This document shows, piece by piece, positions 14,868 to 26,172 of a stretch of DNA of 39,736 bases; positions within the stretch are counted from its first letter, which is position 1; each line of letters begins with the position of its first letter. A program made the position numbers and the translations under genes. This DNA is from Methanosarcinales archaeon. Lineage in GTDB: Archaea; Halobacteriota; Methanosarcinia; Methanosarcinales; Methanogasteraceae. The stretch is from assembly GCA_021159385.1 (NCBI GenBank), contig JAGGRW010000200.1, positions 1-39,736 on the forward strand, written 5' to 3'. The notes under the pieces are model-generated. The model saw nothing but the letters and a program-made list of their open reading frames with translations, ran no database searches and was not told the DNA's origin.

Positions 14868-15242
14868 TCATGCTGCACGATGTACGCCCGGTTCACGTCC
14901 CTGTACTCGATTGTGAGCGGACGGAATCGACCCATCGTCGAGTTCAACCGAAAGTTCGAAACTGCCGAAATCATCTGCTTCCAGTTCTCCGATGAAGTAT
15001 TCCGGGTACGGCTGCCTCGGGGTCACGCCATCGGCAGCATCGATCGAGACGACCACACCCGAAAGATCGGTTGCGCCGTTAAAGAGGGCGATCGTAACAG
15101 TTCCGGTGTCACCGGGCATAAGCGTTGCCGGATCCACCGTGCAGTCCACCACAATCGTGGGCGCAATCTCGGTGTCTGCATGAACCGTTGGAACAACGAA
15201 TACGCTCAGAACGATGGATAGTAATATCAGTGTTTTATTCAT
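14868..15242 (-). pseudogene. Truncated COG1361-type S-layer/surface protein
   Basis: Signal peptide, VDPATLMPGDTGTVTI and YFIGELEADDF motifs, but only ~124 aa, implying internal deletion and truncation. Confidence 0.65.
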
Positions 15243-15852
15243 ATTCCACTTGTATATAGGTATATCATGGCTATGCCCCACAGCAGACAAAATACCGCAG
15301 GTATGCCAAGCACCGTGATAATTGCGTATTTCGTCGATAGATTGCGTGCATGCTTGATCCCAAATATCCATATATTCGCGCTCCACAACAAGAGAAGGAT
15401 TTGGATGATGGTTGCTGCCAGCGTCAATGGATGCATGGGTGGGGAGTGCCAGGCGAGAACTCGATGGTTGGGCGCACAGCCAGGGTTGCAGCAACTCCTA
15501 TGACTGTTGCAATGATCATTGGGATGAAACCATATCCAACGAACTCAAACACCCGTTTGAACGACCCCGTTCCGTTGAACAGCATCGAGATGGCATAGAA
15601 TACTCCGGCATACAGTAGCCATCCGATGAACGGCATAATAAGCCCCATGATGGCGCCGATTACTGCAAAGATGCTTGCAATCACCACCGCCTCTATCGGG
15701 AAAGAGGACACTATTGCACTCATGGTTATCACACTGGAGATAGCTCCAACGATGGCTGCAACGAGCACGATTACGAATGACGTCATCAGTTTTGTGTCTT
15801 TTGCGGATAGTTCGGCAAAGAACTGATCCGGGTTTGTCAGAACATTTGTCAT
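15239..15852 (-). pseudogene. Yip1 family membrane protein, frameshifted
   Basis: VLTNPDQFF...GSFKRVFEFVGYGFIP is in one frame and LWSANIWIFGIKHARNLS in another; break near 15440. Confidence 0.75.
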
Positions 15853-15910: not shown

Positions 15911-16144
15911 TTACGATTCCTCGATGTCTGATTGATTCTGGTTCTGTGAATGCTCATAGTGGATGAACAGCTCCTCGATCGTCACGCCAAAGAAGTCCGC
16001 GAGTTTGAATGCAAGCTCAAGCGATGGGTTGTACCGCTGCTTCTCGATTGCATTGATGGTCTGGCGGGTGACCCCAAGTTTCTCTGCCAGATCCTCCTGT
16101 GTCAGGTCGTGCATCGCCCGAAAGACCTTGAGCCTGTTCTTCAT
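15911..16144 (-). CDS. XRE-family HTH repressor (TRQT recognition helix)
   Basis: MKNRLKVFRAMHDLTQEDLAEKLGVTRQTINAIEKQRYNPSLELAFKLA. Confidence 0.95.
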   Translation of the reverse strand: MKNRLKVFRAMHDLTQEDLAEKLGVTRQTINAIEKQRYNPSLELAFKLADFFGVTIEELFIHYEHSQNQNQSDIEES

Positions 16145-16150
16145 CGGAAT

Positions 16151-16549
16151 CTACATCCTCCATCTATAGCATGCATAGAACCCAAGATAGCAGTACAGCA
16201 TCAAAATTGCCAGAGCCCCGAGCCAATCACCGGCTGCCTCTCCACTCATCGCCCCGATGAATGGATGAACAAAGCGGTTCAACATGTAGAGTGCCAGCAG
16301 CCCGATCACAAATACGCTGAATGCGGCACTCGCTGCCCTTCTGCTAATCTCCAGTGTCCGTTCGTCGTGTGTTATGACTCTGTACCTCTGTCTCGCGCTG
16401 ATCAGTATGATTATCCCGATGCCAACACCGATCGCTCCGATGATTGCATTTGATGTGAGCACTCCTGCGAGCACGCTGGCGACTGCGATGACGTGTGCTG
16501 CCACACGCCAGATCGTAAACATCTTCTCATTGTTTGTGTTATCAGACAT
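16151..16549 (-). CDS. DUF2178-like membrane protein
   Basis: 2 TM, DERTLEISRRAASAAF, 2 TM; lies upstream of an XRE HTH. Confidence 0.8.
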   Translation of the reverse strand: MSDNTNNEKMFTIWRVAAHVIAVASVLAGVLTSNAIIGAIGVGIGIIILISARQRYRVITHDERTLEISRRAASAAFSVFVIGLLALYMLNRFVHPFIGAMSGEAAGDWLGALAILMLYCYLGFYACYRWRM

Positions 16550-16571: not shown

Positions 16572-16591
16572 ATGTAAAGTATTAGTTACAT
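16572..16591. promoter_or_regulatory. Putative XRE operator ATGTAA-N8-TTACAT
   Basis: Palindrome between a TATA-like TTTATGTA (minus strand, ~16596-16603) and the ATG at 16549. Confidence 0.7.
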
Positions 16592-16742: not shown

Positions 16743-17915
16743 TCATCCCTTCAGATACCCCGGAATGTCCCTTATCCGGATCTTCTTCCCCGACATCAGA
16801 ATCGCGTTCCTGAATATTCTTGCCGAGAGTTTGATCACCACGAGGACCGAGATTGTGAGTATCAGGAGGCTTGCTGCGATCTCATAGACCGAAATACCTG
16901 TTAGCGTGATTCGCATCAGTGTTGTTGCGGGTGCCGTGTAGGGTATGTATGTCAGAACCCTTGCGACGGTCGAATCCGGTGCGGCGATGATTACACCGAG
17001 CAACATTATTGGCAAAATCCCCATCATCGTGAATACCATCGCGCCCTGCTGCGCGTCTTTCATGGTGCTTGCTGGCGCCGCAACACATGCCATCGATCCT
17101 GCGAAGAGGAGATAACCCAGGATAAAATATGGGATTGCAAGAATCATTATCTGGGAGATCTGAATCTCCTGAAATACTGCTGCTAACGATGTTAACGAGA
17201 TCATTAGCGTCCCCGAACAGATCCAGACACAGATTTGCAGGAGTCCGGCAGAGCCAAACCCAATAAGCTTCCCTGTGAGAAGTTCTTCAGGAGAAAGTGA
17301 GGAAAGCAGGATCTCGACCGTCTTATTCTCCTTTTCCGCAACGATTCCCTGCATCAGATACCCCGAGGTTGTCATTATCGAGAGCATCATCAGAATTGCG
17401 ACCGCATAAGGTATCAAAAACCGGACCTCCTGCTTTTCTTCAACCTCTCCCTCTTCGTTTAAGGTGATCCGCTCCATATCTGCCGGGCGTCTGATCCGGT
17501 CACCCAGTGGTTCGTCCACATCCAAGTCGCGCAGAAGGTTGTCGATTATGAACGCCTCAATCAAACCGGTCGGGGCTGAACTGAAGAATCCGCCTGTGCT
17601 ATACAGGACAACTCTTCCGGTTTCAAGATAATCCGGGGGGATTGTGATAAATGAGTTTATCTCGTCATTCAAGAGCGCATGCTCTGCATCCCCGATATCT
17701 TCAAACCGGGTGAAGATTCCATCCGGCTGCATGATCCCGGTCTCGTCCACAAAACCGATGTTTCGCGGGGAATCGGTGGCTATCTGCATGACGTAGCCTG
17801 ACGTGAACATCACCGGCAGGAGGATTACGAGCGGCAGGATCAGAGTCAGGATGAAGCCCTTCGTCTTAACAGTCGCCAGAAACTCGTGCTTTGCGACGAC
17901 GAGTGTTTTACGCAA
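16743..17915 (-). CDS. ABC-2 type exporter permease (NatB-like)
   Basis: VAKHEF, IVAEKENKTVEILLSS and LLTGKLIG motifs; multi-TM. Confidence 0.92.
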   Translation of the reverse strand: MRKTLVVAKHEFLATVKTKGFILTLILPLVILLPVMFTSGYVMQIATDSPRNIGFVDETGIMQPDGIFTRFEDIGDAEHALLNDEINSFITIPPDYLETGRVVLYSTGGFFSSAPTGLIEAFIIDNLLRDLDVDEPLGDRIRRPADMERITLNEEGEVEEKQEVRFLIPYAVAILMMLSIMTTSGYLMQGIVAEKENKTVEILLSSLSPEELLTGKLIGFGSAGLLQICVWICSGTLMISLTSLAAVFQEIQISQIMILAIPYFILGYLLFAGSMACVAAPASTMKDAQQGAMVFTMMGILPIMLLGVIIAAPDSTVARVLTYIPYTAPATTLMRITLTGISVYEIAASLLILTISVLVVIKLSARIFRNAILMSGKKIRIRDIPGYLKG

Positions 17916-18891
17916 CGCTAACCACCTCGATAAAGATCTCGTTCAACGACGGCGATTTCATCTCAAATCTTCTCAGTTTTACGGATTCCATCAGATTCTT
18001 GAGAACATCCTGCGGGTCAGTTCCTACCCCTATGTCCAGTTCAGCGTATCTTCCATAATCTTCCATCCCTGTTACGCCGTCGATCGGTTTCAGGTCTCCC
18101 TCGTACTCCACAACCATGACCGGTGATTCCCTGTAATCGGCTTTTATCTGATCGAGTGTGCCGTAGAGCACTTTCTTGCCATGGTTGATCATCAGAATCC
18201 GGTCGCACATCCGCTCTGCCTGATCCATCTGGTGCGTGCTCAGTATGATCGTCTTCCCATCGCGCTTCAGATCGAGCATGATGTCCTTCACAATCTTCGT
18301 ATTGACCGGATCGAGTCCGGAGAAGGGCTCATCCAGAATCAGGATGTCCGGGTCATGAATGAACGCGGAAGCGAGCTGGATCTTCTGTTGCATCCCCTTG
18401 CTCAGGTCACTCACCCGCCTCTTTTTGTGATCGATGAGGTCGACCTTCTCCAGCCAGAAATCGATCCGGTCATCGGGTTTTTTGACGTTTTTGAGGTTTG
18501 CAAAGTACTTCAGGCATTCAAAAACCGTTATTTTCTGGTAAAGCCCCCTCTCCTCCGGAAGATAACCAATCCTCTCCTTAAAAGCCTCATCAAACGCTTT
18601 TCCAAACATTTTAACAGACCCATGATCGGATTTGATGATGTCAAGGATTATTCGTATCATCGTGGTCTTTCCCGCTCCGTTCGGTCCGAGTAATCCGAAT
18701 ATCTCCCCGCTTTCGATATGAAAACTGAGATCATCAAGGATCGTCTTCGTGCCGAAGCTCTTTGTCAGGTGTAGAACATCCAGAACCGGCTCATCTGTTT
18801 CATCCGTTTTTTCCACCTGCGCACCCGCGATTACAGCCGCTGCTGTTTGCCAGATCGTAAATAGTCTCTTGTTCTTTGTGTTATCAGACAT
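17908..18891 (-). CDS. ABC exporter ATP-binding subunit (NatA-like)
   Basis: GPNGAGKTT, LSKGMQQK, LILDEPFSGLD and STH motifs. The N-terminal ~22 aa resemble the DUF2178 protein at 16549. Confidence 0.93.
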   Translation of the reverse strand: MSDNTKNKRLFTIWQTAAAVIAGAQVEKTDETDEPVLDVLHLTKSFGTKTILDDLSFHIESGEIFGLLGPNGAGKTTMIRIILDIIKSDHGSVKMFGKAFDEAFKERIGYLPEERGLYQKITVFECLKYFANLKNVKKPDDRIDFWLEKVDLIDHKKRRVSDLSKGMQQKIQLASAFIHDPDILILDEPFSGLDPVNTKIVKDIMLDLKRDGKTIILSTHQMDQAERMCDRILMINHGKKVLYGTLDQIKADYRESPVMVVEYEGDLKPIDGVTGMEDYGRYAELDIGVGTDPQDVLKNLMESVKLRRFEMKSPSLNEIFIEVVSVA

Positions 18892-18919
18892 TTTGTAATG
18901 TCTCCCTGTCGTTATAAAT

Positions 18920-18937
18920 TGTAATGTACGTTTTACA
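18920..18937. promoter_or_regulatory. Putative XRE operator TGTAA-N8-TTACA
   Basis: Same palindrome as 16572-16591, upstream of the ABC genes. Confidence 0.65.
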
Positions 18938-18950
18938 TGAAGTGGATGCG

Positions 18951-19148
18951 TCAATCATCATCGAAAATAAACAGCTCCTCAATCGTCGTCTCCAGAACCT
19001 TTGCGACATCGTGAGCCAGCTTGAGCGACGGATTGTACTTCCCCTTCTCGAGAAACACAATCGTCTCCCTTCTCACCCCGACCTTCTTTGCAAGCTCCTC
19101 CTGCGTCAGGTTGTATCGTGCCCGCAGTTCCTTGATTCTGGTATTCAC
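18951..19148 (-). CDS. XRE-family HTH repressor (RRET recognition helix)
   Basis: GTG start overlaps the upstream stop; [39 protein letters not shown]. Confidence 0.93.
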
Positions 19149-19549
19149 CGGGCGTCGCCCCTCCGGTTGTAGTACCACCTGAGCATGATCCACGACCAGA
19201 TCCCGACAATGAAGAGATCGGGCACAACATCCTTAAAATTGAAGTTTAGTCCCCAGATACAACCTATTGCTTGAAGAAGAGCCATCATAAGAAGAAGGCT
19301 GCAGAACGCATGATAACCCGCCTTCTCCTCGACCTTCGCCGACCGTTCGTCCTGTATCAGGTACTCTTCTGGTGTTATTGCTGCAACGACGATTGCGACG
19401 ATTGCGACGATCCCCATAAGGAGCAGGGCAAAACCAATTCCGAAATATGAGTAATCTGGGGTAAAACCCAGCATGATGCCGCAGGCGATGATCAGGAGAA
19501 GAGCGCCGCTTGATAACCGCAAGATATCTCTATCTTTTCTGAATTTCAT
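19145..19549 (-). CDS. DUF2178-like membrane protein (array member I)
   Basis: [11 protein letters not shown]...[19 protein letters not shown]...WYYNRRGD. Confidence 0.85.
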
Positions 19550-19869
19550 CAAACCACGTCCCCCTTCCTGCTGTAGTAAAAATGCGCAACCAGAAAACTC
19601 CCGATCATCACTCCGGAAACAGCGGCGATAACCAGACGGGCAGTCAACAGTTCCGGTCTGAATATGCACACAAACGCCAGAGTCCCAACAGTCACAAATG
19701 TAAGAACCCATGACCTGCTCAACGATTGCCTCGTAATCCTGTCGGTCCGCTCGTCAAACTCGATCTCGTCTACGTGCTTATACCCCCGCCGCAGCCTGCG
19801 GACCGTTTCATAGAGCACCACGATCACCACGAAATACAGATACCAGATCCGGAAATCGCCTTCCTGCAT
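19549..19869 (-). CDS. Divergent, shorter DUF2178-like membrane protein (array member H)
   Basis: DERTDRITRQSLSRSW...FYYSRKGD. Confidence 0.75.
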   Translation of the reverse strand: MQEGDFRIWYLYFVVIVVLYETVRRLRRGYKHVDEIEFDERTDRITRQSLSRSWVLTFVTVGTLAFVCIFRPELLTARLVIAAVSGVMIGSFLVAHFYYSRKGDVV

Positions 19870-19873
19870 ATTA

Positions 19874-20230
19874 TCACTTCTCCCAGATTCCCAACAGTCC
19901 GAGCAAAAATCCTATAAGCAGCCCTGCGATGGCGGCTAACGCTATGGCAAGTATGGGGTGGCTATACCAGAATCGGTTATATGCATTATCCACCACACTC
20001 AGTTGATAGAGTTTGTCCCGAACCGGCGGAACCGCCATGAAAAGTATGACTGCTATCAAAAAGAGTATGTGGGTCCAGCTTATCTGGTCCAATTCGACGT
20101 CTCCCTTTAGATAGAAGTAAATAAAACCCAGGATACCGCTGAATAGCAGAAATCCAAAGAGACCTATCGCTTTCAAAGCTGTTTTTACACTTGTTGATTG
20201 TTTACGTTTTTCAGGATCTATGGTTTTCAT
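19874..20230 (-). CDS. Hypothetical 3-TM membrane protein inside the array (slot G)
   Basis: ATGA overlap with the upstream gene; lacks the DER and WYYNR motifs. Confidence 0.7.
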   Translation of the reverse strand: MKTIDPEKRKQSTSVKTALKAIGLFGFLLFSGILGFIYFYLKGDVELDQISWTHILFLIAVILFMAVPPVRDKLYQLSVVDNAYNRFWYSHPILAIALAAIAGLLIGFLLGLLGIWEK

Positions 20231-20631
20231 ACGATCTCACCTCTGCGGTTGTAGTACCATTTGAGTATAAGGAATGAATATGCTCCGACAAGCAGGGTTG
20301 TCCAATACATATCTTCAAGTTCAATGCCGAGCGACCAAATTTTGTCTGCCCAAAATAGAATTATTACAGATAACACGACCATCCAGCCAGCATTATATCC
20401 TGCTTTTTCAGTGATTCTTGTAATCCGTTCATCTGCTATAAGCTCTGTTTTTGGTTTTGTCGCGGTGTATACCGCCCTGGTAAATATAAATAGTCCGGCA
20501 AAAATTAAACCAAATCCTATGAAAAATGTGGTTTTAGAGGGTGCTTGAAACATCAACACCACACCCAATAAAACCACCACCAGACCGACTCTTAAAAGTC
20601 GTAAAATATCTTTATCTTTTCTGAATTTCAT
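20227..20631 (-). CDS. DUF2178-like membrane protein (array member F)
   Basis: KPKTELIADERITRITEKAGYNAGW...WYYNRRGE. Confidence 0.87.
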   Translation of the reverse strand: MKFRKDKDILRLLRVGLVVVLLGVVLMFQAPSKTTFFIGFGLIFAGLFIFTRAVYTATKPKTELIADERITRITEKAGYNAGWMVVLSVIILFWADKIWSLGIELEDMYWTTLLVGAYSFLILKWYYNRRGEIV

Positions 20632-21041
20632 ACGATCTCACCCCTCCGGTTGTAATACCATTTAAATATAAATCGTGAGTATATCCCTACTCCCATGATA
20701 AAGATGCATAGGTCCCTAAGTTCGAGGTTTACTGACCAGATTATATCCACCATGATCACGGTTAATACAAATGACGAAACCATCCCAAATGCAGAATTGC
20801 CCGCCTTTTCATTGATTCTCGTGACCCTTTCATCCGCTACAAGTTCTGTTTTTGGTTTTGATGTTGTCGCAGCATACAACGCTGAAAGCGATGTGATCAA
20901 CCCAATAATAATTAAATATAATCCAGCATAAAACGTAGCTCTATACCCTGTCGGGAATTGAATCGCAAGCATCCCCAATAGAATCAATCCAATACCAATG
21001 CCTAAAGCAAATAAAATCCTTTTATTTGTTCTTATTTTCAT
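20628..21041 (-). CDS. DUF2178-like membrane protein (array member E)
   Basis: KPKTELVADERVTRINEKAGNSAF...WYYNRRGE. Confidence 0.87.
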   Translation of the reverse strand: MKIRTNKRILFALGIGIGLILLGMLAIQFPTGYRATFYAGLYLIIIGLITSLSALYAATTSKPKTELVADERVTRINEKAGNSAFGMVSSFVLTVIMVDIIWSVNLELRDLCIFIMGVGIYSRFIFKWYYNRRGEIV

Positions 21042-21063
21042 TTACATCGCCCGCGTTCTCAAA

Positions 21064-21174
21064 TTAAAACACGAAGTCACCCAACGACTCCGCTACTCTT
21101 ATCAGCTCGTCCGTCTCAAGTTCCTCCTGAGTCAGGCTGTATCGCGCCCACAGTTCCTCGATTCTGGTTTTCAC
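21064..21174 (-). pseudogene. Chimeric remnant: XRE-HTH N-terminus fused to a LolA-like lipoprotein C-terminus
   Basis: VKTRIEELWARYSLTQEEL|ETDELIRVAESL; the halves match 19148 (HTH start) and 22822 (lipoprotein end). Confidence 0.85.
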
Positions 21175-21572
21175 ACGATATCCTCCCTTCGATTATAATA
21201 CCATCTGAGTATAACAAACGAAAGCATTCCAACAAAGAAAATATCAGGTGAAACGCTCTTATAGCTAAGATCTAATCTCCAGAACATAGCTATTGATTGA
21301 ACAAGAGCCCCGGTCCCAAGGAGAATCCAGAACGCGTGATAACCTGCCTTTTCATTGACTCTCACAGACCTTTCGTCCTGTATCAGATCTTCTTTTCTTG
21401 CTGCTGTGATGATGGCTATGATGATCGCAATAATCCCCGCGATGATCAGGACCGAACCGATCCCGAAATAGGTAGGACCGGAAAGAAAACTCATTATGAG
21501 GATACCGGCGAGGATTAATAGAACAGCAATGCCTGAGAAACGCAGGATATCTTTATCTTTTCTTATTTTCAT
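21171..21572 (-). CDS. DUF2178-like membrane protein (array member D)
   Basis: MKIRKDKDILR...[19 protein letters not shown]...WYYNRRED. Confidence 0.87.
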   Translation of the reverse strand: MKIRKDKDILRFSGIAVLLILAGILIMSFLSGPTYFGIGSVLIIAGIIAIIIAIITAARKEDLIQDERSVRVNEKAGYHAFWILLGTGALVQSIAMFWRLDLSYKSVSPDIFFVGMLSFVILRWYYNRREDIV

Positions 21573-21976
21573 ACTACATCCCCTCTCCTGTTGTAGTACC
21601 ATCTGAATATAAACCAGGAATATATTCCTACTAACAGGGTTGTCCAGTACATATCCTCAAGTTCGAGGTCTAATGACCAGATTTTATCTGCCCAAAACAG
21701 AATCATTACAGCTAACAAAACCAGCCAGCCTGCAGTATAACCTGCTTTTTCATTGATTCTCGTAACCCTTTCATCTACTATAAGTTCTGTTTTTGGTTTT
21801 GTCGCGGCGTGTGACGTCATGACAAACATAAATAGCCCAGTAAAAGTTAAACCAAGTCCTATGAAAAATAGGGCTTTAGATTGTGCTTGAAATATCAACA
21901 TAACCACACCCAACAGAACCGACCCCAGACCAATTCCTGAAGTGAGTAAAATCTTTTTATCGGTTCTTATTTTCAT
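21569..21976 (-). CDS. DUF2178-like membrane protein (array member C)
   Basis: KPKTELIVDERVTRINEKAGYTAGW...WYYNRRGD. Confidence 0.87.
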   Translation of the reverse strand: MKIRTDKKILLTSGIGLGSVLLGVVMLIFQAQSKALFFIGLGLTFTGLFMFVMTSHAATKPKTELIVDERVTRINEKAGYTAGWLVLLAVMILFWADKIWSLDLELEDMYWTTLLVGIYSWFIFRWYYNRRGDVV

Positions 21977-21977
21977 T

Positions 21978-22373
21978 TTATTTACCCTCTACCCTGTTGT
22001 AATACCATCCAAGTATAACAAACGAAAACACACCGATAAGAAGAGTCGCCGAGAGCGTACCTCTAATTTCAAGATTGTATAACCCTCTTTCATCTGCCAG
22101 TAACAGCAGTCCGCCAGACATTACAATTATCCAGAATGCGGCATATCCCGCCCTCTGATCATTTTTCTCTGTCCTTTCATCAGGCAGGACTTCTGTTTCC
22201 GGTCTTCGCATGGCGTACAATGCTGAACCAAGCATGATCAGTCCGACCCAGATAAGAGAACAGTGCTTAAAATCATAACTATGAAGACAATTGATTATGC
22301 CCCCCAAAACCATCACGGTTCCTGCCAGTAAGCCCCCTATAACGAATGCATCCTTGTGGTTTCTAATTTTCAC
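21978..22373 (-). CDS. DUF2178-like membrane protein (array member B)
   Basis: GTG start overlaps the upstream stop; PDERTEKNDQRAGYAAF...WYYNR. Confidence 0.85.
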   Translation of the reverse strand: MKIRNHKDAFVIGGLLAGTVMVLGGIINCLHSYDFKHCSLIWVGLIMLGSALYAMRRPETEVLPDERTEKNDQRAGYAAFWIIVMSGGLLLLADERGLYNLEIRGTLSATLLIGVFSFVILGWYYNRVEGK

Positions 22374-22780
22374 TGAATCACATCCCCTTTTCTGTTGTAG
22401 TACCACCTGAGTATGTTCCGCGAAATTATCCCGACAAACATCGCCGCATAGTACATATCCGCGATTTCGATTCCAATCGACCATGCCCGATCCGACCCGA
22501 ATAGAATAGTCATGGATATCAGAACCATCCAGTATGCGGAGTTGCCCGCCCTCTCATTGATTCTTGCAATCCGTTCGTCCGCTACGAGTTCTGTTTCCGG
22601 TTTCGTTGTGGCGTGTAACAATATAGTAAATATAAGCATCCCGGCAACGATCAAACCCATACTAAAGAAGAACTGGGCTCTGGAAGGCGTCCAAAAAGCC
22701 AGTATAGCTACACCCACCGCGATCACGCTTATACTTACCCCCATAGACAGTTTAATCTTCGTATCTGTTCTTATATTCAT
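22370..22780 (-). CDS. DUF2178-like membrane protein (array member A)
   Basis: KPETELVADERIARINERAGNSAY...WYYNRKGD. Confidence 0.87.
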   Translation of the reverse strand: MNIRTDTKIKLSMGVSISVIAVGVAILAFWTPSRAQFFFSMGLIVAGMLIFTILLHATTKPETELVADERIARINERAGNSAYWMVLISMTILFGSDRAWSIGIEIADMYYAAMFVGIISRNILRWYYNRKGDVIQ

Positions 22781-22821
22781 CCGGTATCACCCCTTCCCGC
22801 ACAAAATAAAAAAATACGGAG

Positions 22822-23916
22822 TCATGTCATCGACTCCGCTACGTTCACCAGCTCGTCCTTCTCAAGCCCACCAGACAGCGAATAATCGATGCCATCTGCG
22901 CTCCACTGAAGCGTGTTCATACCGAACATGGACGTAAACTCTCCGTCAGTGCCATTGATGCTCACAATCTCGGGTTCGCCCATTCGCGGTCCGGACTGTT
23001 CCGTATCGTCACTGATCCACTCTGAGAGATACAATCGCTCATCTCCGTTCGTATATTTCAGCGATACGACCTCCCGCTCGCCACCAGTCACCATTGCATG
23101 GTCGTCTAATTCGTATCCTTCCGGCAGATATGACGGGGTTCTCAGATCGAATGTGAGGTTCGCCCTCGCTTCCTCAAGCGTCATCTTCTCAGGCATCCTA
23201 TCCTCAAACGATTCCTCCACGACCTCAGCACCAACCGGTGCCTCGAATATGAACTCGCTGTCAGGGATGCCGGTGTTAAACGTTATATCCCGGTATTCAA
23301 CCTTCACCATTGGATTGCCGTCCGCATCGTACATCTCCGTCCCGAGCAGCATCCAGTTTTCACGATCGACCCATACGCGTGTCTTAGCGATGAATTTACG
23401 CTTAGATTCATCCTTGGGCGTTGCCTCGATCACATAAGTGCTCCGCCCGCCGACATTCTCGGTGCCCTTGTATGATATGTCGTTCTCATCCATGAGATCC
23501 TTTACGATGCTGGTGTAATCCATCTCAAACGGTTCATCCCCCATATCAGGGAGTTCCGTCTTCGTCACCTGATTCTTTGCAGGGTCGTACATCCACATCG
23601 TGCTGCCATTCCTGATCATCACCGTGCCTGCAAATTCGGCTGGCTCGATGAATTCGGAGCGGGTTTTATCCGGCATTTTGGTCATGATCGTTGCATGCGT
23701 GGTTTCGGTTTCCCCGCCATACGACGATGTCATGACCATCGTGGCTGAAAAGTCCTTTATGCTCTCCTGCTTCGCTTCCATCCTGGCAGCGATCTGGTCT
23801 GCGGACATTTCAGACATCTGATCGACGCATCCTGTGAACAGGACGGCTGCAAGGACGATTGCGACTGCTGCGATCTGTTTCGTCCGTCTCTCCATTTGTT
23901 TCGTCTGTTTCTTCAC
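22822..23916 (-). CDS. LolA-fold lipoprotein with DUF4367-like C-terminal domain
   Basis: Lipobox LFTGC; KMPDKTRSE, NGSTMWMYDP, WVDRENW, FNTGIPDSEF.F, PSYLPEGY and DELVNVAESM motifs. Confidence 0.85.
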   Translation of the reverse strand: MKKQTKQMERRTKQIAAVAIVLAAVLFTGCVDQMSEMSADQIAARMEAKQESIKDFSATMVMTSSYGGETETTHATIMTKMPDKTRSEFIEPAEFAGTVMIRNGSTMWMYDPAKNQVTKTELPDMGDEPFEMDYTSIVKDLMDENDISYKGTENVGGRSTYVIEATPKDESKRKFIAKTRVWVDRENWMLLGTEMYDADGNPMVKVEYRDITFNTGIPDSEFIFEAPVGAEVVEESFEDRMPEKMTLEEARANLTFDLRTPSYLPEGYELDDHAMVTGGEREVVSLKYTNGDERLYLSEWISDDTEQSGPRMGEPEIVSINGTDGEFTSMFGMNTLQWSADGIDYSLSGGLEKDELVNVAESMT

Positions 23917-23951
23917 CTGTTTTCACCTTCTTATGCTGTCTCTGTTGTTGA

Positions 23952-24003
23952 AGTTACTTATTTCTAACTCCATGTTAGATATAGTTAACATCAAGGTATA
24001 AAA
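23952..24003 (-). promoter_or_regulatory. Promoter of the lipoprotein/DUF2178 operon with two tandem operators
   Basis: TTTTATA (minus strand, 23997-24003) followed by ATGTTA-N8-TAACAT (23972-23991) and AGTTA-N8-TAACT (23952-23969). Confidence 0.7.
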
Positions 24004-24264
24004 GGGTTTCGGGGTCGGGTGCAAGACCCGGTACGTAAAAGTTTCAAAAACAGTGTCGGTAGCAATAGTTCCGAAAGCCGCTTTTCGGATCGACAGTGAT
24101 GCGGAAGCGTTGCGCAGCAGCGCCGGAGGCATAAAAATTGCCAGAAACAGACCCATTTCCCGGGAAACCCAATAATTTTACGCCGCGGAGGAGTCCCCCG
24201 CAACCCCCACAAAAGACTTAATACCAAATCACAAGAATCAACATCACAAGAGGTGCATAACAAT

Positions 24265-26172
24265 ATGGCAAAAATCCTGGGAATTGATCTTGGAACCACG
24301 AACTCCTGCATGGCTGTGATGGAAGCGGGCGAGCCCACCATCATACCGAACGCCGAGGGTGGAAGAACAACTCCTTCTGTCGTCGGATTCTCGAAGACCG
24401 GAGAGCGGCTGGCAGGGCAGATTGCAAAGAGACAGGCGATATTAAATCCGGAACGGACAGTCTCTTCAATCAAACGGCACATAGGCGAGAAGGACTACTC
24501 CGTAGACATCGATGGCAAGAAGTATTCGCCGCAGGAGATCTCTGCCATGATCCTGCAGAAGATGAAAGCCGATGCGGAGGCGTATCTGGGAGAGACGATA
24601 ACAGATGCCGTGATAACGGTGCCCGCGTACTTCGATGACTCCCAGCGGCAGGCGACAAAGGACGCCGGGGCAATAGCCGGGTTCGATGTGAAGCGGATCA
24701 TAAACGAGCCGACTGCGGCTGCGTTCGCTTATGGACTCGACAAGGACGAGGGCGAGCAGACCATCATGGTCTACGATCTCGGTGGTGGCACGTTCGATGT
24801 CTCGATACTTGAGCTTGACCCGAGTATCGGAACGTTCGAGGTGAAATCCACGTCCGGAGACACTCATCTCGGCGGGGACGACTTCGATCAGAAAATTGTG
24901 GATTACATCGTCTCCGAATTCAAGAAACAGGAAGGAATCGATCTATCCCCGGACAAGTCAGTGATGCAGCGGCTCACCGATGCTGCCGAGAAGGCGAAGA
25001 TCGAGCTTTCAGGCGTTGTCACGTCAACGATCAGCTTGCCATTCATAACGGTTGGTCCCGACGGGCAGCCAAAGCATCTCGAGATTACGCTCACTCGTGC
25101 GACATTTGATGAACTGACCGCAGACCTTGTGAATCGGACGATAGCGCCGATGGAGGATGCGCTCAAGAGCGCGGGACTCTCAAAAGGTGCGATCGACCGC
25201 GTACTCCTCGTTGGCGGCTCAACCAGGACGCCATCGATAATCGACGTAGTCGAGCGGATCACCGGAAAGAAGCCATACAAGAACATCAATCCCGACGAGG
25301 CTGTCGCTATGGGCGCGGCGATCCAGGGCGGGGTGCTCTCAGGCGATGTGAAAGACGTGCTGCTTCTGGATGTGACGCCGCTTGCGCTCGGAATCGAGAC
25401 GCTCGGCGGGGTTGCGACGCCACTGATCGAACGAAACACAACGATTCCGACGAAGAAGAGTCAGATATTCTCAACGGCAGCGGACAACCAGCCATCTGTC
25501 GAGATTCACATCCTGCAAGGGGAACGCGGCATTGCATCCGCAAACAAGACGCTCGGCAGGTTCATGCTCGACGGCATCCCGCTTGCTCCGAGGGGAATAC
25601 CGCAGATAGAGGTGACATTCGATATCGATGCGAACGGCATCCTGAACGTGAATGCAAAGGATCTCGGTACCGGAAAGGAGCAGTCGATCACAATCAAGAA
25701 GCCTGGCGGATTGTCCGAAGAGGAGATCAAGCAGATGATCAGGGATGCTGAGGATCATGCTGAAGAGGATAAGAAGCGAAAAGAGGCTGTTGAGACGAGG
25801 AATTCCGCTGAAGCGCTCGTAACCTCCGCTGAAAAGACGCTCAAGGAAGGCGGCGACCTTGTAACTCAGGATCAGCGAGAAACTGTCGAGAACGCGATAG
25901 AAGAGTTGAAGAAAACGCTTGAGAGTGGTGCTGGTGGCGAAGGTGAGGGCGAGGGCGCTGACACGCAGGAGATAAAAAAGAAGACAGAGGCGCTGACAGA
26001 GGCGATCTACCCAATCGCATCCGCCATGTACGAGAAAGGCGCGGCAGATCAGGCAGCAAGCCATGGCGCAGGCCAGGCGACAGGAGCGGAAGGTGCAGAG
26101 GGCGCAGCTGGCGGCGAAGGCGGAGATACTGTAGTCGATGCCGATTACGAGGTCGTGGACGACGAGAAATGA
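24265..26172 (+). CDS. dnaK: Molecular chaperone DnaK (Hsp70)
   Basis: [30 protein letters not shown] and DADYEVVD motifs. Confidence 0.99.

Follow-up and report, generated by a model that had tools for sequence, protein, structure and literature searches.

The operon described here lies on the minus strand of a 39,736-nucleotide stretch of DNA (the window, to which all positions refer) from a methane-oxidising ANME-2c archaeon. It comprises a LolA-like lipoprotein gene, eight DUF2178-type paralogs (A-F, H and I), an unrelated gene (G), a dead repressor copy and a gene for a 65-residue XRE repressor, and downstream of it lie an ABC-2 exporter and then a ninth DUF2178 gene with a repressor of its own. 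The first-pass annotation had read the lipoprotein, A-D, a scar, E-I and the HTH gene as one co-oriented unit, and all of these elements are present. The features, from the promoter onwards, are:

23998-24011, minus: archaeal promoter core, BRE-like cGAAA plus TATA box TTTTATA (24004-23998), read in the sequence
23974-23989, minus: O1, putative operator GTTA-N8-TAAC, invariant in a 14-locus alignment
23953-23968, minus: O2, putative operator GTTA-N8-TAAC, likewise invariant
22822-23916, minus: lipoprotein, LolA/RseB-like N-domain and DUF4367 C-domain (Pfam)
22370-22780, minus: DUF2178 paralog A (Pfam 30.9 bits)
21978-22373, minus: DUF2178 paralog B, GTG start (Pfam 18.7 bits, below cut-off)
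21569-21976, minus: DUF2178 paralog C (Pfam 24.9 bits)
21171-21572, minus: DUF2178 paralog D (Pfam 33.6 bits)
21064-21174, minus: repressor gene remnant (the scar), 36 open codons
20628-21041, minus: DUF2178 paralog E (Pfam 22.6 bits, just below cut-off)
20227-20631, minus: DUF2178 paralog F (Pfam 22.7 bits, just below cut-off)
19874-20230, minus: G, small membrane protein outside DUF2178, no Pfam family
19549-19869, minus: DUF2178-like paralog H, no Pfam match (paralog HMM, E 6e-35)
19145-19549, minus: DUF2178 paralog I (Pfam 28.7 bits)
18951-19148, minus: HTH, 65-residue XRE repressor of the CylR2/PbsX class (HTH_3 58.2 bits)
17908-18954, minus: ABC ATPase, DrrA-like (ABC_tran 112.5 bits, DrrA1-3_C 57.4)
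16743-17915, minus: ABC-2 permease (ABC2_membrane_3 138.5 bits)
16573-16590, minus: putative operator of the second unit, TGTAA-N8-TTACA, close behind a TATA-like CTTTAT
16151-16549, minus: Z, ninth DUF2178 protein, single-type (Pfam 39.5 bits)
15911-16144, minus: HTH2, second small XRE protein (HTH_3 67.5 bits)

The longest open reading frame for B extends to 22484 and that for HTH begins at 19193; the GTG start used instead for HTH overlaps the stop of I. Much of the array is AT-richer than its flanks, as had been remarked (GC 0.386-0.454 over 20001-22500 versus 0.48-0.60), and GC3 is 0.37-0.48 in B-G versus 0.60-0.68 in the lipoprotein, H, I, HTH and neighbouring genes. The 2.05-Mb, 87.6%-complete genome has eight PF09946 matches, all within the window.

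Paralog types and their distribution

Assignment of the paralogs to DUF2178 (PF09946, Pfam cut-off 22.8 bits) holds in part when each is taken alone: A, C, D and I score above the cut-off, B, E and F fall below it, and H has no match. An HMM of the paralogs matches all eight with E-values of 6e-35 or better (4e-50 for B). The DER motif and the C-terminal YY are invariant in an alignment of the eight members with Z, and reading the sequences confirms two features reported at first pass, the AGxxA segment (SLSRS in H) and the C-terminal (W/F)YY(N/S)R. Across 93 DUF2178 sequences, with a mean column identity of 28%, the E of DER never varies, and its D and R are conserved to at least 90%. H, at 106 residues, lacks the first helix and has three hydrophobic segments by hydropathy. 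G, with approximately three hydrophobic segments, reaches an hhalign probability of 1.6% against the DUF2178 family and has no named match in the protein atlas; orthologs of it occur in loci L014 and L034 and fragments in L013 and L023.

Sequence comparison indicates that the paralogs are old, well-supported orthologous types rather than a recent burst, which is at odds with the expanding repertoire originally proposed. The A-type clade (support 96/80; closest relative of A 68% identical) occupies the penultimate position in other arrays and the first here, and in other arrays the B-type (100/100) directly follows the lipoprotein. Paralog C is 91% identical to L028_2, and E forms a clade with L014_4 (100/99); clade support is 98/99 for the H-type and 100/99 for Z. 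D and I, 52% identical to each other, belong to one type (94/96; D is 93% identical to L014_3) that closes the run of membrane genes in each of the 11 complete ANME-2c arrays. F is a C-like copy, 69% identical to C in protein and 81% in DNA over 300 nt, and none of the other loci examined has a one-to-one ortholog of it.

The repertoire had also been described as diversifying, but we see no diversifying selection at the amino-acid level. The pooled dN/dS is 0.33 (0.17-0.87 for single ortholog pairs), and no region exceeds 1, with values of 0.21 for the cytoplasmic segments (the DER loop and both termini), 0.41 for the helices and 0.42 for the outer loops. Between types, identity is 0.42-0.56 in the cytoplasmic segments versus 0.19-0.29 in the membrane and outer parts, and within types it is 0.57-0.84 in every region. 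The placement of the basic N-terminus, the DER loop and the WYYNRRG tail in the cytoplasm is predicted from hydropathy and the positive-inside rule.

The cassette of lipoprotein, array and repressor was found in 11 complete ANME-2c loci with two to eight copies, so that array content differs among relatives, the comparison on which the first-pass annotation had staked its reading. L014, from an independently assembled genome, has the order B-C-D-remnant-E-G-H-I-HTH, and L028 lacks A. Contigs of another study contain strain variants without F and G or without A; F and most of G are skipped in the former, and a variant joining B directly to the lipoprotein spacer comes from a low-depth contig (depth 6.7, shorter side 21 letters). 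RNA contigs 90-95% alike occur in one metatranscriptome of a relative, with possible DNA carry-over. Arrays of 3-10 copies are present in Methanoperedens, an ANME-3 bin and others. The family is otherwise usually single-copy, as had been stated: 139 of 301 genomes of the phylum have it, mostly with one or two matches per genome. Of 17 loci from other genomes, 16 have an HTH gene of the same class next to DUF2178, and the pairing of DUF2178 with this CylR2-like XRE repressor class is near-obligate.

The repressor, its putative operators and the neighbouring genes

The array repressor profile matches 9k3w, a 65-residue 'PbsX family' regulator, at 4.5e-17, and CylR2 (1utx), its second-best solved relative, at 4.9e-12; the protein is 41% identical to the annotated cylR2 product of an E. 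faecalis plasmid. It is 94-100% identical within ANME-2c and 81-84% identical to its counterparts in three loci of other families, and because it is almost invariant it offers no co-variation with any of the paralogs. The stop of I overlaps the start of HTH (GTGA), and the stop of D overlaps the start of the remnant in the same way; D plus remnant is a 269-nt direct repeat, at 71% identity, of I plus HTH. The remnant keeps the N-terminal helix and the C-terminal end and lacks the middle of the HTH. It aligns to the live gene and to matching remnants in L014 and L013; these copies stay open for 36/38/32 codons, with differing ends. No DUF2178-HTH fusion was found among longer proteins, the single longer match having no HTH domain.

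Upstream of the lipoprotein, 14 aligned ANME-2c loci show little or no variation in the block GAAAC..TTTTATAC, and the sequence preceding this block is unalignable. The sites O1 and O2, to which the repressor presumably binds, are 5 bp apart and start 8 bp past the last TATA-box base. With up to one mismatch allowed, the 2.05-Mb genome has a single copy of the double site, and the window has two single sites (O1 and O2) against 0.24 expected. Of 35 loci, some of them duplicates of one contig, 16 carry the double site, and in the mapped ANME-2c loci it lies just upstream of the lipoprotein gene; in Methanoperedens and G034 loci, related sites are found between a TATA box and the first DUF2178 gene.

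The lipoprotein scores 73.3 bits with LolA_like, 50.4 with DUF4367 and 40.2 with MucB_RseB in Pfam, and 55.7 bits with the NCBIfam lolA model, below its 112-bit cut-off. It has a lipobox, LFTGC, read by eye, and is the first cassette gene in every ANME-2c locus whose start was covered. As for the suggested link to an ABC exporter, homologous ABC genes follow the HTH gene here and in four loci outside ANME-2c (L019=L048, L039, L043 and L046), but the 10 other complete ANME-2c arrays all lack an adjacent exporter. One B-type copy, in L013, continues in frame into the outer domain of an ABC-2 permease (35% identity over 112 residues, E 1e-16). We also note that an N-terminal part of the ABC ATPase reading frame (~18814-18891) resembles the first 25 residues of Z.

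HTH2 belongs to a different subfamily from the array repressor by sequence comparison. Eight loci carry the putative operator motif of this second unit immediately before the DUF2178 gene, namely the Z-type loci L006 (the window), L007, L008, L010, L011 and L014 and the Methanosarcinaceae-family loci L001 and L002. The different palindrome of this second unit and the ABC homologs following HTH in four further loci were counted towards the relay considered below. No signal molecule or biosynthetic gene was found among the 24 window proteins scanned.

A proposed relay and alternative readings

We give about an even chance to a multi-input relay of membrane signals to an auto-repressor, resembling CylR1/CylR2 or AyrA/AyrR and built by segmental duplication, probably with exchange between lineages. 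The sensor role signalling through the XRE protein that was first suggested is kept as the best reading. In its favour are the pairing with HTH genes, the kinship of the repressor to CylR2, the CylR1 and AyrA precedents, the resemblance of CylR1 to DUF2178, the contrast between shared cytoplasmic and type-specific outer parts, the conserved promoter and sites, the constancy of the D/I-type and the ties to ABC exporters, the L013 fusion among them. Counting against it are the weakness of the CylR1 similarity, the different family of AyrA, the near-invariance of the repressor, the lack of any DUF2178-HTH fusion among longer proteins, the missing exporter beside 10 ANME-2c arrays and the lack of a signal or biosynthetic gene among the 24 window proteins scanned. 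The 65-residue repressor, probably as dimers, would bind the two sites 8 bp past the TATA box and shut its own operon (lipoprotein, membrane paralogs and repressor), and in this genome the repression might extend by read-through to the ABC-2 exporter. The repressor itself lacks a sensor domain, and we infer that the DUF2178 proteins are its membrane partners, by analogy with CylR1 for CylR2 and AyrA for AyrR. The cytoplasmic segments common to all types would be the repressor-contacting face, and the type-specific helices and outer loops would recognise differing membrane-borne signals, for which hydrophobic peptides, uncleaved signal peptides or lipoproteins, and lipids are candidates. Once activated, a sensor would either sequester the repressor or render it inactive. 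The core partner may be the D/I-type, whose gene is always translationally coupled to that of the repressor, with the other types as optional extra inputs or modulators. The lipoprotein could be an outer ligand-binding co-sensor or part of the output, in which case it and the exporter might remove the offending hydrophobic molecule. The dead repressor copy after D indicates that the array grew by segmental duplication, with probable unequal crossing-over at conserved gene junctions, and cassettes seem to have been exchanged between ANME-2c lineages.

A rather unlikely but serious alternative is that the paralogs assemble into a hetero-oligomeric membrane machine which, with the lipoprotein and, in loci that have it, the exporter, handles hydrophobic cargo (lipoproteins, lipids or signal peptides), the XRE protein being a mere auto-repressor signalled otherwise. 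Old, well-supported types under purifying selection fit a hetero-oligomer equally well, and the LolA/RseB-fold lipoprotein always first in the cassette, the permease fusion in L013 and the AyrA precedent taken up below all favour it. However, copy number varies from two to eight in one family and from three to ten elsewhere with only the D/I-type constant, which is hard to square with a fixed complex, and across the phylum DUF2178 is mostly single-copy with HTH alone, lacking both lipoprotein and exporter. The 65-residue repressor also appears to have no room for a ligand site, so a partner would have to deliver the signal.

We consider improbable the alternative of the first-pass annotation, that immunity genes accumulate in the array under control of the XRE protein, every paralog counteracting its own membrane-active peptide or toxin (archaeocin-like) or blocking a receptor used by viruses. 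The variable, strain-dependent gene content, the differing genomic contexts among genera, the type-specific outer and membrane parts, the atypical GC3 of several types in all genomes and an IS200-like transposase adjoining one array are as this reading would have it, as is a synonymous divergence from G014 of 0.08-0.36 in the DUF2178 genes, far below the 1.08 of DnaK. Yet no toxin, bacteriocin or lanthipeptide gene was found among the 24 window proteins or 10 flank proteins of L014/L015, no relatives were found on viral contigs, no region has a dN/dS above 1, and the types are kept as orthologs across genera rather than turning over. The near-obligate pairing with a repressor, even in single copy, points to regulation.

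It is highly improbable that the array is an artefact, whether through misassembly, through repeat collapse or as a series of pseudogenes in decay. The metagenome bin has 226 contigs, the paralogs share junction repeats of up to 81% identity, one repressor copy is dead and one Z-like gene survives as a remnant, but the nine membrane reading frames are open, closely packed and under purifying selection, L014 shows matching gene order, and single per-run contigs from two DNA runs, which may include the source sample, span A through F (20052-22816 and 20166-22861) and G through the ABC gene (18900-19991 and 18900-20086), the sole break falling inside G, where variants exist.

Comparison with known systems

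The relay had originally been likened to SdpI/SdpR, which is not the closest precedent: the SdpI model matches only B, at 12.6 bits against a cut-off of 28.2, and SdpR is ArsR-type. CylR1/CylR2 and AyrA/AyrR are closer, and the DUF2178-HTH pair type thus has characterised analogues; for the multi-copy array form, a literature search on the name DUF2178 found no published description.

In S. aureus, the XRE repressor AyrR controls an ABC-2 transporter and receives a membrane signal (stable signal peptides) by way of the membrane protein AyrA; AyrBC function requires AyrA, and derepressed ayrBC seems toxic without it (PMC4542188). Because AyrA is also needed for transporter function, this precedent cannot tell a sensor role from a subunit role. 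AyrA differs from DUF2178 in its family (DUF3169), its six helices and its D-E(a/g)E motif.

CylR1 is a small membrane protein with three predicted helices encoded just upstream of cylR2, and induction by an extracellular peptide requires it (PMC3709268; bioRxiv 10.1101/2024.08.13.607848). It has no Pfam family, and only five relatives were found, near-identical and too few for a profile. CylR1 (L036:901-1185) has DER after its first helix and ends in FFNKRTS; both motifs align with the 93-sequence DUF2178 alignment in hhalign (E 6e-4, probability 28.8%). On the DUF2178 HMM it scores 9.3 bits, a value reached by none of 2000 shuffles (maximum 7.1, mean -1.9, sd 2.0), and the similarity between CylR1 and DUF2178 appears weak but non-random.

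Gene content and integrity of the array

The array is a compact minus-strand unit that opens with a lipoprotein gene and closes with a small XRE repressor gene. Its junctions are mostly overlaps of one or four bases or gaps of a few bases, and the stop codon of I overlaps the start of the repressor gene (HTH); the exceptions are the 41-base gap between the lipoprotein gene and A and the 22-base gap between the repressor remnant and E. The genes are as follows.

22822-23916, minus strand: lipoprotein, 364 aa, first in transcription order
Directly after the lipoprotein gene, minus strand: membrane paralogs A, B, C and D, in that order
21064-21174, minus strand: repressor-gene remnant of 36 codons, between D and E
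After the remnant, minus strand: paralogs E and F, the unrelated small membrane gene G, the short paralog H, and paralog I, in that order
18951-19148, minus strand: XRE repressor (HTH), 65 aa, end of the array
Beyond the repressor gene, co-oriented with the array: a DrrA-like ABC ATPase gene, then an ABC-2 permease gene
Beyond the ABC genes: Z, a ninth DUF2178 gene, with its own small XRE gene (HTH2)

Four of the eight array members pass the PF09946 cut-off of 22.8 bits outright (A 30.9, C 24.9, D 33.6, I 28.7), as does Z (39.5). E (22.6) and F (22.7) fall 0.1-0.2 bits short, B scores 18.7, and Pfam gives no PF09946 match for H, although an HMM built from the paralogs finds all eight at E 6e-35 or better, and they share one tree with the members that pass. 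The first-pass annotation had described a DER motif and a C-terminal ending of an aromatic residue, YY, N or S, and R as common to all eight, and this holds; DER is invariant in the nine window copies, and across 93 DUF2178 sequences the E never varies, and conservation of the D and R is 90% or more. By hydropathy each paralog has four hydrophobic segments, except H with three. NCBIfam has no family for any of the membrane paralogs, a protein-atlas search with D returned only unnamed or DUF2178 clusters, and G has neither a Pfam family nor a named match in the atlas. A search for DUF2178-HTH fusions, which is weak evidence, found none and matched one longer protein (257 aa, DUF2178 only), and viral contigs yielded no relative of D.

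The lipoprotein matches LolA_like (PF17131) at 73.3 bits against a cut-off of 30, has a DUF4367 C-domain and a MucB_RseB match of 40.2 bits, and its N-terminus contains a lipobox, LFTGC, read in the sequence as a putative lipid attachment site. The genome is a 226-contig bin that is 87.6% complete, and every one of its DUF2178 matches falls in the window. The neighbours of the array include housekeeping genes encoding DnaK, SecD/F-like proteins, PRPP synthase and a DHH phosphoesterase. Two further features of the surroundings deserve mention. The ABC ATPase ORF (17908-18954, minus strand) has an N-terminal extension (18814-18891) resembling the first ~25 residues of Z (MSDNT..FTIW..), which looks like what is left of a Z-type gene after an in-frame fusion; in genome G007 (locus L011) an intact Z-type gene stands directly upstream of the ABC genes. 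Downstream of HTH2, on the same strand (14868-15852), are a membrane protein with a Yip1 domain (69.2 bits) and an overlapping ORF of 208 aa without a family.

There is little reason to regard the array as an assembly artefact, and we give that explanation almost no weight. Logan contigs of two DNA runs contain 0.97 and 0.94 of the sampled words, with A through F in single contigs (20052-22816 and 20166-22861) and G through the ABC gene likewise (18900-19991 and 18900-20086); the two runs may include the source sample, and the comparison is thus a test of the assembler and not of the sample. The sole break in both runs lies inside G (20037-20051 and 20131-20132), where there are alternative unitigs, and this indicates strain polymorphism. 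Locus L014, assembled independently, has the order B-C-D-remnant-E-G-H-I-HTH, as in the window. Contigs from another study include variants without F and most of G and one variant without A, the latter at a low depth of 6.7 and with a short side of 21 letters; L028, which carries the closest C ortholog found (92% identity), also has no A. The RNA run X19 contains contigs 90-95% alike over parts of HTH, I, H, B and the lipoprotein gene, one of which runs C straight into H; they are those of a relative, DNA carry-over is possible, and uncovered bins do not count as silence.

Distribution, repressor and putative operators

Relatives were sought with a single-protein query, and the records of the closest are titled ANME-2c, ANME-2 cluster or Methanosarcinales archaeon. 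The lipoprotein gene leads the cassette in every same-family locus whose start was fetched, and the 11 complete cassettes, from lipoprotein through repressor, have 8, 7, 6, 5, 5, 5, 5, 4, 3, 2 and 2 DUF2178 genes. The commonest layout is lipoprotein-B-C-H-A-D-HTH (L022 and L024; L031 is a protein-for-protein duplicate of L022), and the window has lipoprotein-A-[B C D HTH-remnant]-[E F G H I HTH]. The last membrane gene is of the D/I type in all 11 complete arrays. Elsewhere in the order there are arrays that lack the leading lipoprotein gene, with 4-10 copies in Candidatus Methanoperedens (at loci not cut by a contig end), eight in a 'Methanosarcinaceae archaeon' bin, five in Candidatus Methanovorans (ANME-3), four in genome G034 and three in a 'Nanohaloarchaea' bin. 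Across the phylum, 139 of 301 genomes have DUF2178, mostly with one or two matches and at most four, compared with seven in the window's genome, all counted with the Pfam model, which undercounts diverged copies. At L021:4236-6432 (G003), three successive matches to the lipoprotein gene (359, 268 and 94 aa) precede the array, which suggests tandem duplication of that gene or fragments of it.

A small XRE repressor gene adjoins every array whose end was fetched, and of 17 loci from other genomes 16 have an HTH of the array-repressor class next to DUF2178. Homologs of the ABC genes also lie behind the HTH gene in L019 (the same as L048), L039, L043 and L046, but the other 10 complete ANME-2c arrays have no adjoining ABC exporter; the exporter link is real but not constant. 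In L013 (9717-10724, minus strand), a 336-aa open frame runs from a B-type DUF2178 protein through one additional helix into an ABC-2 permease outer domain, with 35% identity (E 1e-16) to residues 48-149 of the window permease; this may be a genuine fusion protein or the scar of a rearrangement.

The repressor itself shows 94-100% identity within ANME-2c, and 81-84% to the repressors of three loci of other families. Fourteen loci whose sequences upstream of the lipoprotein gene do not otherwise align have in common an invariant BRE/TATA block and two GTTA-N8-TAAC sites spaced 5 bp apart. In the window these elements are as follows.

24004-23998, minus strand: TATA box
23989-23974, minus strand: O1, putative operator
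23968-23953, minus strand: O2, putative operator
23916, minus strand: GTG start of the lipoprotein gene

With up to one mismatch allowed, the genome has no second copy of the double site, and O1 and O2 are the only single GTTA-N8-TAAC sites in the window, where 0.24 are expected. The double site is present in 16 of 35 loci (some of them duplicate fetches of one contig), and lies upstream of the lipoprotein gene in the mapped ANME-2c loci. Arrays of Methanoperedens and G034 have related sites downstream of the TATA box and ahead of the first DUF2178 gene, one of them identical to a window site. Placed over the expected transcription start, which would fall inside O1, the sites fit ordinary archaeal repression, a step that we infer. 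The Z-HTH2 unit carries a TATA-like box of its own and another palindrome, TGTAA-N8-TTACA, which is conserved upstream of DUF2178 genes in eight loci.

The best solved relatives of the HTH profile are a 65-aa 'PbsX family' regulator (9k3w, E 4.5e-17), for which a literature search found no paper, and CylR2 (1utx, E 4.9e-12, residues 5-62). Searched by tblastn, HTH matches 1261 plasmid records, and its best plasmid relatives (62-73% identical, in Bacillus and Clostridium) overlap small membrane genes annotated as DUF3796; the annotated cylR2 of an E. faecalis plasmid is 41% identical. We also note repressor homologs with a small ORF 3-4 bases upstream at L057:2102-2698 (Halobacterium salinarum pNRC100) and L056:2158-2686 (a S. 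aureus plasmid). These ORFs, of 131 and 112 aa, have weak Pfam matches to membrane-protein families and none to DUF2178, and the annotation of the pNRC100 ORF as an ISNCY transposase looks doubtful.

Paralog types, growth and apparent exchange

The array had been described at first pass as an expanding one, and the trees modify this. A quick tree of 99 copies (with eight rows dropped, namely a fusion, fragments and duplicates) and a careful tree of 65 ANME-2c copies (four rows dropped) both recover the types B (support 100/100), A (96/80), D/I (94/96), H (98/99), Z (100/99) and E (100/99), and in both the C-like copies are paraphyletic. By this phylogeny the paralogs are old orthologous types and not the product of a recent burst. 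D plus the remnant is a 269-nt direct repeat, at 71% identity, of I plus HTH, and gene junctions repeat at up to 81% identity; the repeat and the recurring junctions argue for growth by segmental duplication and unequal crossing-over. The remnant is also present in L014 and L013, both of other genera. We considered it as a conserved mini-protein and reject this for now; the frame is open for 36, 38 and 32 codons, but the C-terminal ends differ, and the divergence is too low for a verdict.

Pairwise dN/dS values averaged over genes, which could hide a few positively selected sites, range from 0.17 to 0.87 by the Nei-Gojobori method for 22 window-centred pairs; in a second set of 22 ortholog pairs the pooled value is 0.33, with 0.21 in cytoplasmic segments, 0.41 in helices and 0.42 in outer loops. 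Between types, consensus identity is 0.42-0.56 in the N-terminus, DER loop and C-tail versus 0.19-0.29 elsewhere, whereas within types it is 0.57-0.84 for all regions. Hydropathy and the positive-inside rule predict that the three better-conserved regions are cytoplasmic. In short, the paralogs have a common inner face and stable differences in their membrane and outer parts.

The window's DnaK gene (24253-26169) has dS values of 0.98-1.16 relative to four other ANME-2c genomes. Relative to G014, which belongs to another genus, dS of the cassette genes is far lower, at 0.08-0.36 in the DUF2178 genes and 0.23 in the lipoprotein gene and in HTH; for the lipoprotein gene relative to G009, G005 and G002, dS is 0.64-0.78. 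The flanks of the cassette are non-syntenic between genera, with DapB and a GTPase at L014 and an IS200-like (Y1_Tnp) transposase gene at L015 (5286-5711, genome G005), ~500 bases downstream of the repressor gene. In all ANME-2c genomes examined, the B, C, D and E types (19877-22373 in the window) have a GC3 of 0.32-0.50. It is mostly 0.49-0.68 for A, H, Z, the terminal (I-like) D/I copies and the lipoprotein genes, with the exception of L020_5 at 0.37, and mostly 0.54-0.67 when the D/I copies are set aside; in the window it is 0.68 for HTH and 0.60 for I. Since the split follows type across genomes, the odd codon usage goes with the gene type and not with the host. Exchange of cassette parts from a shared pool fits these observations, on the basis of one housekeeping gene and metagenome bins.

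Readings of the array and comparison with known systems

Several readings of the array are plausible to different degrees. The one we favor, and to which we give about an even chance, is that of a multi-input version of a membrane-to-repressor device like CylR1/CylR2 or AyrA/AyrR. One auto-repressor would be served by up to eight membrane partners that have a common repressor-facing side and differ on the signal-facing side, with the D/I type as the constant core partner, and the LolA/RseB-like lipoprotein could be an outer co-sensor, or part of the output together with the exporter. It seems unlikely that the paralogs instead form a hetero-oligomeric effector complex, a reading that the stability of the types would suit and that the variable number of copies speaks against. 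An immunity repertoire, as had also been entertained at first pass, is more doubtful; the differences among paralogs do lie in membrane and outer parts, and they are stable within types.

A bolder reading, which we offer as a speculation with a low chance of being right, is that the array serves as a combinatorial bank of receptors for membrane-active peptides or lipids, by which the consortium-forming ANME-2c, ANME-2d and ANME-3 sense kin, partners or competitors. Each paralog type would serve a different signal, the signals would converge on one near-invariant repressor, and cassettes would be traded between lineages. If this is true, bacterial peptide quorum sensing would have an archaeal counterpart that works without a phosphorelay, and DUF2178 would have its first function. 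The array is a variable and apparently exchanged accessory locus in uncultured methane-oxidising archaea, whose signalling is little known, and it provides a natural experiment in which an invariant repressor and operator are confronted with up to ten partners alike in their cytoplasmic face and different elsewhere. That common face points to the residues to mutate, namely DER, the basic N-terminus and WYYNRRG, and the rest may set specificity.

Pairs of a small XRE protein and a small membrane protein are very common, but only CylR1/CylR2 and AyrA/AyrR have been studied, with the relay mechanism known in neither, and it is through these two bacterial analogues that the kind of pair is known. 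Literature searches found nothing on DUF2178 by name and nothing on the array under related DUF names, and we did not find in print either an archaeal multi-copy array with a leading lipoprotein, conserved types and operators, or the CylR1-DUF2178 link that we propose.

The single-copy DUF2178 and small XRE pairs of archaea and Bacillota, of which Z with HTH2 is one, have the same two families in the same order. They differ in having one membrane gene rather than 2-10, no lipoprotein, a different HTH subfamily, and the palindrome TGTAA-N8-TTACA in place of GTTA-N8-TAAC.

The first-pass annotation drew an analogy with SdpI/SdpR of Bacillus subtilis, in which the membrane protein captures the repressor on meeting an extracellular peptide. 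SdpR is an ArsR-type regulator and that of the array is XRE, and the SdpI Pfam model reaches 12.6 bits, on B only, against a cut-off of 28.2; what survives of the analogy is the idea of capture of a repressor by a membrane protein. For the lipoprotein alone, there is an analogy to RseB-RseA-sigmaE, where a LolA-fold protein outside the cytoplasm stands upstream of an inhibitor that spans the membrane and holds back a transcription factor. The MucB_RseB match of 40.2 bits is in line with this, but the NCBIfam RseB model, with a cut-off of 368, gives the lipoprotein 20.2 bits, and no genes for sigma or anti-sigma factors or a proteolytic cascade were seen.

The ayrRABC operon of S. aureus is described as encoding an ABC-2 transporter and a small XRE protein that represses its own promoter, where it has a palindromic site (PMC4542188, PMC5727409). 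AyrA is described there as a six-helix DUF3169 protein with the acidic loop motif D-E(a/g)E that relays a build-up of stable signal peptide to AyrR, and the authors propose AyrR/AyrA as a general two-component device without a phosphorelay (PMC4542188, PMC5727409). A search of the literature from 2018 gave nothing relevant to AyrR/AyrA among the matches listed. The array is similar in its palindromic sites at the auto-repressor's own promoter (here by sequence only, at 14 loci and unique in the genome), in the proposed passage of a membrane-borne signal from membrane protein to XRE repressor, in the acidic motif conserved within a membrane-protein loop, and in overlapping stop and start codons. 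The ABC ATPase and ABC-2 permease of the ayr operon are a partial parallel: co-oriented genes, perhaps of the same operon, are present in the window and homologous ones at four other loci, and none adjoin the other 10 complete ANME-2c arrays. However, AyrA is a six-helix DUF3169 protein given in those sources as having 'one homolog per genome', and the array has four-helix DUF2178 proteins with DER in 8+1 copies and no DUF3169 among its Pfam matches; the repressor gene is first in S. aureus and last in the array, the exporter is no constant part of the ANME-2c cassette, and AyrR and the array HTH are likened by description only.

CylR1/CylR2 are the regulator pair of the Enterococcus faecalis cytolysin operon. 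CylR2 represses the operon, and an extracellular peptide induces it only if CylR1, presumed to be a membrane protein, is present; no phosphorelay is involved, the mechanism being given as unknown (PMC3709268; bioRxiv 10.1101/2024.08.13.607848). In an E. faecalis plasmid, cylR1 encodes 94 aa, ends one base before cylR2, has DER after the first helix and ends in FFNKRTS. Aligned to the 93-sequence DUF2178 alignment by hhalign, CylR1 gives E 6e-4 at a probability of only 28.8%, with the DER and tail motifs co-aligned, and it scores 9.3 bits on the DUF2178 HMM, a value reached by none of 2000 shuffles. These similarities weakly support homology of the membrane partners, which is best called probable but unproven, since CylR1 has no Pfam family and the relatives found number five, near-identical and too few for a profile. 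The two systems differ in that CylR1 is a single partner of 94 aa with three predicted helices and the array has eight paralogs, mostly with four; the CylR1/CylR2 signal is a lanthipeptide subunit from the adjacent toxin gene cluster, whereas no lanthipeptide enzyme or precursor is present among the 24 window proteins scanned; CylR1/CylR2 has neither a lipoprotein nor an ABC-2 exporter; and the promoter logic is archaeal in the array and bacterial in CylR1/CylR2. In both, nevertheless, the gene directly upstream of the repressor in the same operon encodes a small multi-helix membrane protein in which DER follows a helix and the C-terminal tail is basic and aromatic, the array HTH is related to the 66-aa XRE repressor CylR2, and the phosphorelay-free character of CylR1/CylR2 is a further point of likeness.
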